Below are positions 1,507 to 17,869 of a stretch of DNA of 45,679 bases, in pieces. Source of the DNA: an uncultured archaeon. GTDB lineage: Archaea; Asgardarchaeota; Lokiarchaeia; Sigyniarchaeales; SOKP01. Location: positions 10,387 to 56,065 of the forward strand of contig CAYUTF010000015.1 in NCBI GenBank assembly GCA_964447495.1. The letters run 5' to 3'. Below the pieces are notes generated by a model. That model was not told the DNA's origin. It searched no databases and was given only the letters and a program-made list of their open reading frames with translations. Position 1 is the first letter of the stretch, and the number at the start of each line of letters is the position of its first letter. The translations under genes were made by a program, and so were the position numbers.

Positions 1507-2988
1507 TTGTTTAGGATGAATGTGAATAAAGTAGAAGAAAATATTTATGAAATACCCCCCTCGACGTTAATGGCTCGTGTTGAGGGAACAATAAAGAAGT
1601 TCCAGATGAAAGTTCCAGTTCATATCTATGCTAACGAATATATCTTAGAAAAAATTAAATTAGATAGAACTCTTGATCAAATTAGCAATGTAGCATGCTT
1701 AGGAGGTATTCAGAAACATGCTATAGCCCTTTCAGATGCACATCAAGGATATGGTTTTTGTATCGGAGGTGTAGCAGGAACAGATGCTAATGATGGGATG
1801 ATCTCTCCTGGTGGCGTGGGATATGACATTAATTGCGGAGTTAGATTACTAAGAACAAATCTGTTTTTAAATGATATAAATAAAGAGCTTCCATCTCTAC
1901 TTGATAAAATTTTTAAAAATATTCCTTCAGGTTTAGGTTCAAAAGGAAAATTAAATATAAGTTACAAGGATTTAGATGAGGTTCTAGATACAGGTTTAAA
2001 TTGGGCTCTAAAACAGGGTTATGCATTGGAACAAGATCTACATCATTGCGAGGAAAATGGTTTTCTAAAAGATGCTAATTCAGAATTAATATCAGAAAAA
2101 GCAAAGCAAAGAGCTATTAAGCAACTTGGATCTTTAGGTAGTGGAAATCATTTCCTTGAAATCCAAAGAGTAGATGAAATATATGATAGAGCCATTGCTA
2201 AAAAATTAGGAATTATAAAAAAGGATCAAATTACAGTAATGGTTCATACGGGCAGTCGAGCTTTAGGTCATCAAGTATGTTCAGATTCACTTAGAAATGT
2301 TGAAAAAGCGATGAAAAAATATAATATTCAAGTTCCTGATAGGGAATTGGCTTGCGTACCAGCAAACACCAAGGAAGCAAAAGATTATTTAAGCCAAATG
2401 GCATGTGCAGCAAATTTTGGTTTTTGTAATCGCCAATTAATAACTCATTGGTTAAGAGAATCATTTCAGGAACAATATAACAAAAATACTGATGATATGG
2501 ATTTTCATCTAATATATGGCGTTTGTCATAATATATTAAAAATTGAAGAACATGAAGTTAATGGCAAAAAAATGCTCTTAAATATTCATAGAAAAGGTGC
2601 AACTAGAGCGTTTCCTCCTGGACATTCTGATATACCTCAAGATTATAAAAGTATTGGACAACCAGTATTAATACCTGGAACTATGGGATCAGCATCATAT
2701 TTGTGTGTAGGAAAACCAAAGGCAATGGATCTTACATTTGGTTCTACTGCACATGGTTCGGGGAGGTTAATGTCAAGATCTAAAGCAACCAAACAATATT
2801 GGGGATCTAAAATTAAAGAAGATTTGGGGAATAAAGGTATATTAGTAAAAGCCGCTTCAATGAAAGTTATAGCAGAAGAAGCTCCGGGAGCTTATAAAGA
2901 TATAGATCAAGTTGTTCAAGTTAGTCATGATTTAAATATTATTGAAAAAGTGGTAAGATTAGTCCCTGTGGGAGTTGTCAAAGGCTAA
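1507..2988 (+). CDS. rtcB: tRNA-splicing ligase RtcB (ATG at 1516 is an alternative start)
   Basis: Motifs DAHQGYGFCIGG, GVGYDINCG, GSLGSGNHFLE, HTGSR, HN, HRKGAT, GSTAHGSGR, EEAPGAYK. Confidence 0.97.
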   Translation: MFRMNVNKVEENIYEIPPSTLMARVEGTIKKFQMKVPVHIYANEYILEKIKLDRTLDQISNVACLGGIQKHAIALSDAHQGYGFCIGGVAGTDANDGMISPGGVGYDINCGVRLLRTNLFLNDINKELPSLLDKIFKNIPSGLGSKGKLNISYKDLDEVLDTGLNWALKQGYALEQDLHHCEENGFLKDANSELISEKAKQRAIKQLGSLGSGNHFLEIQRVDEIYDRAIAKKLGIIKKDQITVMVHTGSRALGHQVCSDSLRNVEKAMKKYNIQVPDRELACVPANTKEAKDYLSQMACAANFGFCNRQLITHWLRESFQEQYNKNTDDMDFHLIYGVCHNILKIEEHEVNGKKMLLNIHRKGATRAFPPGHSDIPQDYKSIGQPVLIPGTMGSASYLCVGKPKAMDLTFGSTAHGSGRLMSRSKATKQYWGSKIKEDLGNKGILVKAASMKVIAEEAPGAYKDIDQVVQVSHDLNIIEKVVRLVPVGVVKG

Positions 2989-14130: not shown

Positions 14131-14232
14131 GCAGGAGTCGCCAAGCCTGGTCAAAGTAAAATTACAACCAACGGCGCTAGACTGAGGTTCTAGTCTCATA
14201 GGAGTACGAGGGTTCGAATCCCTCCTCCTGCA
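14131..14232 (+). tRNA. tRNA-Leu(GAG) with a 17-nt D-arm intron at 21/22 (14155-14171)
   Basis: Acceptor GCAGGAG/CTCCTGC, anticodon arm CTAGA-CTGAGGT-TCTAG, long variable arm, GGTTCGAATCC. Removing the BHB intron restores GCCAAGCCTGGTCAACGGCG. Confidence 0.92.
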
Positions 14233-15631: not shown

Positions 15632-15777
15632 AGCCCCTGGTGGGATTTTCGCATTCTGGGTAAATCCCTGAACGTATTGAACCCACGACCGATTGATAAC
15701 TCGTTATTGCTTTAACAATAATTACGAATCAATCGCTTTTGGCGTCTAAAAGTACCATACCACTAAGCCACAGAGGC
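15632..15777 (-). tRNA. tRNA-Thr(CGT) with three introns: 22/23 (15738-15756), 37/38 (15698-15722), 59/60 (15646-15675)
   Basis: Acceptor GCCTCTG/CAGGGGC with U discriminator. Excising three BHB-bounded introns (19, 25 and 30 nt) from 146 nt gives a 72-nt cloverleaf with ATTGA-TTCGTAA-TCAAT and GTGGG-TTCAATT-CCCAC. Confidence 0.9.
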
Positions 15778-15828
15778 AATAAGTTGATTTAATTATTATA
15801 AATATTAAAAAATTATAAAATTTTCCCA

Positions 15829-16839
15829 ATGACTTCTGAAAATAATATTCACAATCTAGGAGAGATTCAATTAATTAGTATAATTGAAGATTTAGTTTTA
15901 AAGGAAGCAGGAGAGAAGTTGATTAAGGATGATGCTTTTTTTTTTGAGATGCCCGAATCCAATAAAATATTAATTCTAAATACTGATATGTTTATTTCCA
16001 CTACTGATGCGCCCATTGAAATGAATTATTTTCAAATGGGACGTAAATCAGTTCTTATGAATATAAGCGATTTAGTTGTTAAGGGTGTAAGACCTCAAGG
16101 TATAATTATTTCGTTAGGATTACCTCCGGATTTAAGTGTATCCCAATTCAAAGATTTGATTAAAGGTATAATTGATTATTCAAAAAAATGGAATTTGAAG
16201 TATCTTGGAGGTGACCTTAATAAATCTAAAGAAGTAATTATAAATCCTACGGTTTTTGGGTTTAAGAATCCTGAAACTATCATACATCGAAACGGGATTA
16301 AAAAAGGAGATATTCTATTAATAAACAATAAATTTGGATTAACTAGTGTAGGGTTCGATATCCTTCTCAATCGAGGGGGGGATGTAAAAGATTTTCCTAA
16401 ATATAATCGATCATTAACAAGTGTTTTAGAACCGAGTTTCTTAGGAACTGAAGCATATTTCTTGTCGGATAGGGGTTTAGCTAGTACAAGTATTGATTCA
16501 TCAGATGGTTTAGTAAAGTCATTAAGAGATTTAATGTTATCAAATAAAGGTTTCGGTTTTGAAATTGAATTTGATGAAGATTTAATAGATTCTGAAGCAA
16601 TTGAGTATTCACAGGATTTTAATATTTCTTTAGAAAAATTAATTCTTAATGGAGGAGAAGAGTTCATTCATTTATTTACAATTCATCCCGAAAATTATGA
16701 AGAAATAATCAAATTGGTCAACTTACATGGTGGATCATTAATTAAGGTTGGAAAGGTAATTTCTAAAGAGAAGATTTATATAATCAGGGAAGGTAAAAGA
16801 ATCGAAATAACAAATCAGGGTTATGAGCATTTTAAATAA
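15829..16839 (+). CDS. thiL: Thiamine-monophosphate kinase
   Basis: LGEIQLI, DDA, NTD, NISDL, GGDL, IDSSDGL, GGEEF. Confidence 0.92.
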   Translation: MTSENNIHNLGEIQLISIIEDLVLKEAGEKLIKDDAFFFEMPESNKILILNTDMFISTTDAPIEMNYFQMGRKSVLMNISDLVVKGVRPQGIIISLGLPPDLSVSQFKDLIKGIIDYSKKWNLKYLGGDLNKSKEVIINPTVFGFKNPETIIHRNGIKKGDILLINNKFGLTSVGFDILLNRGGDVKDFPKYNRSLTSVLEPSFLGTEAYFLSDRGLASTSIDSSDGLVKSLRDLMLSNKGFGFEIEFDEDLIDSEAIEYSQDFNISLEKLILNGGEEFIHLFTIHPENYEEIIKLVNLHGGSLIKVGKVISKEKIYIIREGKRIEITNQGYEHFK

Positions 16840-17770: not shown

Positions 17771-17869
17771 GGGCCATTAGCGCAGGCAGGTAGCGCGGCA
17801 GGCTTTTAACCTGAAACTTGCTTATCAACGCAAGCAGGATGGTCGTGGGTTCAATTCCCACATGGCCCG
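17771..17869 (+). tRNA. tRNA-Lys(TTT) with a 25-nt intron at 44/45 (17816-17840)
   Basis: Acceptor GGGCCAT/ATGGCCC with G discriminator; D stem GCGC/GCGC; anticodon loop CTTTTAA; BHB CCTG-AAA-CTTGC/GCAAG-CAGG-ATG. Mature length 74 nt. Confidence 0.92.

Follow-up and report, generated by a model that had tools for sequence, protein, structure and literature searches.

A tRNA-Thr(CGU) gene with three predicted BHB introns in an uncultured Asgard archaeon

Can a stretch of archaeal DNA in which standard tRNA searches find nothing encode a working tRNA that is interrupted in three of its arms? The question arises from a locus in the window (i.e., the whole 45,679-nt stretch of DNA analysed here) that is absent both from the output of ARAGORN run on the whole window and from the Rfam gathering scan. 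A sequence-only reading had proposed a tRNA-Thr(CGU) gene with three introns at this locus (19 nt at 22/23, 25 nt at 37/38 and 30 nt at 59/60), a 72-nt spliced product, and intron making up half of the gene. All of these sizes and sites hold in our analysis. We show that the gene runs from 15777 to 15632 on the minus strand, that its ends form a 7-bp acceptor stem, and that introns occupy 74 of its 146 nt. The map is as follows.

15632..15777, minus strand: tRNA-Thr(CGU) gene, 146 nt, without encoded CCA, discriminator U
15757..15777, minus strand: exon 1 (gene 1-21), acceptor 5' strand, U8, D stem 5' strand and D loop to position 22
15738..15756, minus strand: intron 1 (gene 22-40), 19 nt, at position 22/23 in the D arm, relaxed BHB
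15723..15737, minus strand: exon 2 (gene 41-55), 15 nt, D stem 3' strand, position 26, anticodon stem 5' strand and anticodon loop to 37, with anticodon CGT
15698..15722, minus strand: intron 2 (gene 56-80), 25 nt, at the canonical position 37/38, strict hBHBh'
15676..15697, minus strand: exon 3 (gene 81-102), 22 nt, position 38, anticodon stem 3' strand, variable loop, T stem 5' strand and T loop to 59
15646..15675, minus strand: intron 3 (gene 103-132), 30 nt, at position 59/60 in the T loop, BHB with 3/4 central pairs
15632..15645, minus strand: exon 4 (gene 133-146), 14 nt, position 60, T stem 3' strand, acceptor 3' strand and discriminator

Removing the introns at the predicted cuts leaves a complete cloverleaf, with stems of 7, 3 (plus a U.U), 5 and 5 pairs according to the exact solver. 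ARAGORN accepts the 72 nt of joined exons as a full-length tRNA-Thr(cgt) [1,72] and makes no call on the uncut 146 nt. Against Rfam RF00005, the unspliced gene reaches 13.3 bits in a permissive scan, below the gathering threshold of 29, as expected of a gene that carries three inserts. The product has the anticodon CGT, the pairs G1-C72, C2-G71 and C3-G70, and T as its discriminator, features of a tRNA-Thr; G1-C72, C2-G71 and U73 are what we take to be the acceptor and discriminator identity features used by archaeal ThrRS. The three-intron solution ranked top both in the genome-wide solver and in the exact 72-nt solver, and the latter also returned three weaker solutions with different products. 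A split or permuted tRNA gene is excluded by the four colinear exons within one 146-nt stretch.

BHB geometry was scored at the exact intron boundaries. The claim of three BHB motifs stands insofar as all three are present, but intron 1 matches the motif only in a relaxed form and intron 3 contains one A.C mismatch. Intron 2 is a strict hBHBh', with a complete central helix (4/4), 3-nt bulges and long flanking helices on both sides. At intron 3, T-loop TTCA faces intronic CGAA in a central helix of 3/4 pairs, and the inner and outer helices have 5 bp each, the outer flank being the T stem and the inner flank a helix within the intron. At intron 1, D-loop TGGT (the G18 G19 region) pairs with intronic GCCA along the whole central helix (4/4), the inner helix has just 2 bp and no outer helix abuts. 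Shuffled introns scored as well as or better than the real ones in 93/5000 cases for intron 1, 10/5000 for intron 2 and 22/5000 for intron 3, and same-length alternative placements scored as well in 4/110, 0/104 and 0/99 cases, respectively. The minimum free energy (MFE) fold of the precursor (-49.4 kcal/mol, z = -4.12, equalled by 1 of 200 shuffles) displays the intron 2 motif intact, and lacks the intron 1 motif and the central helix of intron 3. The motifs of introns 2 and 3 are well beyond chance alone; that of the D arm requires other support.

We compared the gene with its orthologs, which were collected as 28 syntenic loci through an adjoining conserved 337-aa ORF and by a DNA search of same-genus genomes. 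Of the 28, 20 are named Promethearchaeota or Promethearchaeia, four bear other Asgard candidate-phylum names, three are titled "uncultured archaeon" and one has a bacterial label, in agreement with the Asgard origin suggested beforehand (NCBI taxonomy places Promethearchaeota in the kingdom Promethearchaeati). The locus with the bacterial label (L036, titled Nanopelagicaceae bacterium) contains the archaeal gene pair in synteny and is probably a mislabelled bin. From all sources, 37 genes were extracted, namely 35 Thr(CGU) genes, our own included, and two Thr(UGU) paralogs; at least two pairs of loci are identical and possibly come from the same genomes, and there are 33 different protein rows. 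Insert positions were taken from a dynamic-programming alignment and from the exact solver, the solver being preferred as the alignment misplaced boundaries where anticodon stems differ.

The comparison of orthologous Thr(CGU) loci, which the sequence-only reading had recommended, gave an uninterrupted ortholog matching each junction. In L023, the first 42 nt are free of inserts and reproduce exons 1 and 2 plus 6 nt from the start of exon 3 as one continuous string, which fixes junctions 1 and 2, the latter within a slide of one base. In L024, introns 1 and 2 have homologs, intron 3 is missing and the 7-nt T loop is uninterrupted, which fixes junction 3. For junctions 1 and 3 no neighbouring cut reproduces the ortholog sequence, and the one-base slide at junction 2 gives the same product. 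Exon 1 itself finds a 100% match over query 1-20 or 1-21 in five same-genus genomes (G009, G017, G019, G021 and G022). One rejected candidate moved intron 1 by a single base (gene 21-39); it yields a perfect 4-bp D stem and is accepted by ARAGORN, but intron-free orthologs have T at position 22. Judging from these sequences, the U13.U22 mismatch made by junction 1 is real.

The exons are also under visible constraint. The spliced product is identical to mature L024 at 70 of 72 positions, and the sole difference is the T-stem pair 50:64, which is U-A here and G-C in L024. Among nine relatives compared, eight have G-C at this pair and the ninth, L048, keeps U-A. The anticodon-stem pairs 27:43, 28:42 and 29:41 covary among the orthologs as well. 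These covarying pairs indicate that the stems split by introns 2 and 3 are under pairing constraint. In 33 of the 35 orthologs intron 1 is missing; its single homolog, 19 nt long and at the same site in L024, has changed at both outer intronic positions of the central helix, and these still pair with T. The three-intron proposal is thus borne out by the spliced cloverleaf, by orthologs in which each intron in turn is missing and the exons stand joined, and by compensatory stem changes across introns 2 and 3, and we consider it very probable that the locus is a functional tRNA-Thr(CGU) gene with three protein-spliced BHB introns at 22/23, 37/38 and 59/60.

The D arm is the place where this reading is most exposed, as the gene might hold two true introns only, the D-arm insert being no EndA intron at 22/23 and either having other boundaries or being retained as an enlarged D loop. 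The motif of intron 1 is the weakest of the three in its helices, in its shuffle score and in its absence from the MFE fold, and a form-A alternative at 24/25 passes the cloverleaf test too. Furthermore, a recent preprint states, in its available text, that a substantial minority of intervening sequences, those in the D arm especially, are without a canonical motif, and it allows that some are not introns (bioRxiv 10.64898/2026.10.13.758758). A different removal of 17 nt from the D arm (gene 11-27) even outscored the chosen intron 1 in an early solver with looser rules and dropped out only once GG in the D loop was required; it deletes G18 G19, leaves the D loop without GG and contradicts the orthologs. 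Against the two-intron account, exon 1 is directly joined to exon 2 in L013, L015 and L023, exactly as the 22/23 cut would produce, and the homologous insert of L024 has kept the central helix despite its intronic-side changes. In addition, 10 resolved genes of the genome have D-arm inserts after gene positions 21-24, and about six of these inserts end in RCC(N)AA and are able to pair with the D-loop GG. We therefore allow the two-intron account a small chance.

The gene could also be a decaying relic, a former tRNA-Thr gene disrupted by insertions that yields no working tRNA. Half of it is insert, standard finders are blind to it, and threonine tRNA genes with UGU and GGU anticodons are present elsewhere in the genome: Thr(UGU) at C1:22980-23081 with one intron at 59/60, and Thr(GGU) at C29:21993-22125 with introns in the D arm and at 59/60. 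By the wobble rule, ACG codons might be decoded by a UGU tRNA. Decay is hard to reconcile with four stems that are intact after splicing, with exons that differ from the closest ortholog by one compensatory change, or with three inserts that all lie exactly at splice-competent motifs. The sole single-nucleotide polymorphism inside the gene, at window position 15713, falls in the terminal loop of intron 2, and the same architecture is common in the genome's other single-copy tRNA genes. Neither ARAGORN nor our census found a second Thr(CGU) gene, intronless or otherwise, in the draft genome (223 contigs, 98% complete). The only other ARAGORN "tRNA-Thr(cgt)", at C24:34759-34859, was rejected as a second copy since by eye its long variable arm, CGA anticodon and G discriminator make it a class II Ser(CGA). 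Taken together, we regard a pseudogene as very improbable. A faulty assembly or binning, e.g., a chimeric join of fragments, is an explanation that any metagenome bin of 223 contigs with 3.75% estimated contamination invites. Contigs from three of four independent DNA runs (X3, X5 and X6) nonetheless span the gene colinearly with no gap or joint (X4 contributed none there), and at least 35 loci show the tRNA in synteny with its flanking genes, so that an artefact is scarcely credible.

If the precursor is spliced, the genome appears equipped for it, as it encodes a predicted endonuclease for relaxed or non-canonical motifs and a predicted RNA ligase. A profile search found two PF01974 genes. 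The product of the first, on contig C196 (201 aa), has the catalytic chain of Aeropyrum pernix as its best match (3p1z_B, E = 8e-36), keeps Tyr, His and Lys, and contains a loop that aligns with the Crenarchaea-specific loop, with a Lys opposite K44. The second, a paralog on C3 (205 aa), aligns with the Methanocaldococcus enzyme and has its catalytic His replaced, as would be expected of a structural beta subunit. Previous work names K44, ties the Crenarchaea-specific loop to the cleavage of non-canonical introns and, in the sections available, describes (alpha-beta)2 EndA with an L1 loop in Asgard archaea (PMC5829648). The ligase gene, present once, lies inside the window and would act in trans:

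about 1678..2985, plus strand: RtcB RNA ligase, PF01139 match of 561 bits (G000:C15:12064-13371)

In the route that we propose, the 146-nt precursor would be transcribed, and at each intron a conserved piece of the tRNA would pair with the intron's 3' part into a 4-bp central helix. The exon pieces would be the GG-containing D-loop stretch, the 5' side of the anticodon loop and the T-loop TTCA. A heterotetrameric (alpha-beta)2 splicing endonuclease could then cut within both 3-nt bulges, RtcB would ligate the exons and probably circularise the introns, and the CCA end would be added last. We infer from sequence that splicing takes place, how the cuts are ordered and what becomes of the excised introns; of the 24 listed sequencing runs that contain the locus, none is recorded as RNA.

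Relatives of this gene differ widely in their introns. Among the 35 orthologs, one has no insert (L048), 20 have one, 13 have two, and the gene studied here is the sole one with three. Inserts occur at 22/23 in two orthologs, at 28/29 in 13, at 37/38 in 14, in the variable region 42-47 in seven (with ambiguous boundaries), at 58/59 in eight and at 59/60 in five; for 12 orthologs without the D-loop GG, which have no exact-solver solution, these counts rest on the dynamic-programming alignment. At least six intron positions are thus found at one locus, where exons are conserved and inserts differ. Change is also seen among close relatives. In a maximum-likelihood tree of the neighbouring protein, our genome, L023 and L024 fall into one clade (support 100/99), and its three members have three intron sets, namely 22/23, 37/38 and 59/60 in our genome, 22/23 and 37/38 in L024, and only 45/46 in L023. 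Rfam scores drop as inserts rise: intronless L048 scores 71.7 bits, nine orthologs with one intron lie at 49.8-63.4, and among seven with two introns Rfam finds three (48.1, 34.2 and 29.4 bits) and misses four.

Some tRNA alleles disagree with the flanking-protein tree. The tRNA genes of L013 and L023 are alike at 101 of 102 positions, yet their flanking proteins sit in different well-supported clades. L020 and L034, conversely, have near-identical flanking proteins and tRNA genes that are alike at 75 of 101 positions, with different intron sites, and L041 and L046 are another discordant pair. That tRNA alleles are out of step with the tree of the flanking protein suggests that whole tRNA genes, exons and introns together, may have been exchanged by recombination, perhaps between species. 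As a separate observation, the orthologs with the 37/38 intron only (L032 and L034-L045) have the D loop AGTCGTA without the usual GG at 18-19, which is unusual for an elongator tRNA.

The sequence-only reading had further supposed an under-reported, intron-rich tRNA set in this lineage. We therefore turned to an ad hoc, SPLITS-like census of the genome, seeded by the T-loop motif and requiring a T stem, a 7-bp acceptor stem and U8, with BHB-guided intron removal and validation of the product by ARAGORN; its counts exclude contig C80. The census resolved 40 tRNA genes, of which 26 have introns: 14 genes are uninterrupted, 15 have one intron, seven have two, two have three and two have four (the last doubtful). 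Neither ARAGORN nor Rfam overlapped 11 of the 26 intron-bearing genes, or seven of the 11 genes with at least two introns. Since so many intron-bearing genes are missed, tRNA complements of such bins are undercounted, which matters for annotation. The supposition is upheld for this genome in that the set is intron-rich and missed by scans; its framing is dated, as such sets are already in print for Asgard archaea, as far as the available texts go (PMC5829648, PMC11291895 and bioRxiv 10.64898/2026.10.13.758758).

The other three-intron gene is Asn(GUU) at C27:3834-3984, with inserts in the D arm, in the anticodon loop and at 59/60. Inserts of 29-34 nt at 58/59 or 59/60 occur in 11 credible genes, next to the 10 with a D-arm insert mentioned above. 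Census solutions at C8:49177, C19:36852, C17:6306 and C54:20011 and in two C77 genes stand without ortholog comparison and are possibly wrong, and at least 14 further candidate stretches are without a census solution. Four long stretches (C19:36852-37061, C64:11345-11522, C8:49177-49336 and C13:56976-57083; 210, 178, 160 and 108 nt) combine a good acceptor stem and T arm with interiors that are not convincingly solved, and may be tRNA genes with four or more introns.

The distribution of inserts points to two hot spots, and we infer that in both the exon strand of the central helix comes from universal tRNA sequence, namely TTCR in the T loop and the GG stretch in the D loop, so that any tRNA would offer the same landing site. 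In line with this, T-loop inserts end in YGAA plus two bases, and by our own reading about 6 of the 10 D-arm inserts share the ending given above. The core, or inner part, of the intron 3 hairpin recurs at 59/60 in Lys(CUU) and in a Ser-type gene on C12 of the same genome, and the genome contains no other convincing copy of intron 1 or intron 2. We distinguish a family A, a GGRATTTACCC hairpin found in Thr(CGU), Lys(CUU) and a Ser gene here and in Ala(GGC) and Lys(UUU) of congeners, and a family B in Asp(GUC) and Gly(CCC). When only the parts free of motif constraint were compared, three pairs beat the best pair of all 300 shuffled sets and a fourth was matched by 1 of 300. The strict family A pattern occurs in 9 of 42 genomes of the genus, compared with one for the reversed control, and in the relatives it sits in Ala(GGC) in seven cases and in Lys(UUU) in a single genome.

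A tentative interpretation, to which we give somewhat less than an even chance, is that the T-loop introns of the genus belong to sequence families that spread among tRNA genes for different amino acids and always land at 59/60, where the universal TTCR would give the exon half of the splice motif; it draws on few genes and is not proof of mechanism. If true, it would offer direct evidence, at the level of sequence, of one way in which introns reach the tRNA genes of Asgard archaea, a point left open by the 2026 preprint in its available text. More generally, turnover at one locus, with at least six positions within a genus, and introns shared across genes bear on how introns arrive and persist.

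Multi-intron tRNA genes and intron transposition in Thermoproteales were reportedly described by Sugahara in 2008 and Fujishima in 2010. [quoted passage not shown] It differs in belonging to another phylum, in being a mesophilic sediment or marsh organism with an AT-rich genome (31.3% GC), and in that its shared families all sit at 59/60. Likewise, a eukaryotic nuclear tRNA gene with one intron in each of the same three arms offers a parallel, but its splicing endonuclease complex is different and there is no sign of common intron descent.

Within Asgard archaea, the gene is a further example of a kind already published, and its novelty is modest. Hidden disrupted tRNA genes were inferred in Asgard bins in 2018 (PMC5829648), and in Atabeyarchaeia and Freyarchaeia 92-95% of tRNA genes were reported to have introns, more than half of these genes having several (PMC11291895, 2024). 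Goswami et al. (2026, bioRxiv 10.64898/2026.10.13.758758) describe, in the text available, genes with as many as five inserts, D-arm inserts that escape tRNAscan-SE, and gains that are recent and have happened repeatedly. Our gene shares with the systems of the last two reports, as their accessible parts describe them, several non-canonical BHB-type introns per gene, D-arm introns missed by software, the clearest motifs in the T arm and repeated recent gains, whereas those reports center on Atabeyarchaeia, Freyarchaeia and Jordiarchaeia. According to the preprint, cross-type intron families make up 28.3% of Thermoproteales inserts and 1.5% in its focal Asgard lineages (80% identity). Unlike those lineages, which have almost no cross-type families, we see sharing at 59/60, and in this respect the lineage studied here may be closer to Thermoproteales. 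In Lokiarchaeota, a tRNA-Sec with a 31-nt T-loop intron has been reported (Mariotti et al. 2016, PMC4989117, in the portion available); it comes from the same lineage and has a T-loop intron of about 30 nt like ours, but it is another tRNA with a single intron. Our literature search returned no paper that deals specifically with multi-intron tRNAs of Lokiarchaeia or Promethearchaeia, and the main text of the 2026 preprint contains no word beginning with "Loki" or "Promethe", although the genus may sit in its 90-genome panel. What the locus adds is a clean, junction-resolved case of tRNA gene fragmentation in the closest prokaryotic relatives of eukaryotes.

Two neighbouring tRNA genes in the window have inserts of their own:

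14131..14232, plus strand: tRNA-Leu(GAG), 102 nt, with a 17-nt D-arm insert
17771..17869, plus strand: tRNA-Lys(UUU), T loop intact, with 25 nt inserted in the variable region after gene position 45

The Leu(GAG) insert is absent from the 85-nt orthologs in L023, L024, L026 and L046 and looks like a recent gain in the lineage. ARAGORN calls the Lys(UUU) gene "tRNA-???", and Lys(UUU) of the congener L051 has a family-A intron at 59/60 and no insert in the variable region. Between the Thr(CGU) gene and a divergent ORF starting at 15829 lies a 51-nt spacer (15778-15828) with two AT-rich, TATA-like boxes that are kept at most orthologous loci. The spacer may be a shared bidirectional promoter region; it is common to the divergent ORF and the genome is AT-rich, so that the boxes carry no weight here. 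Intronless tRNA genes form clusters elsewhere. On contig C80 (15.2 kb), ARAGORN finds 21 tRNA genes for many amino acids, all intronless and on one strand, and the GC content is 34.8% compared with the genome-wide value given above. This contig could be a tRNA array of a virus or mobile element, or a binning contaminant. Smaller intronless clusters are found at C26:33639-34079 and C8:48193-48874.
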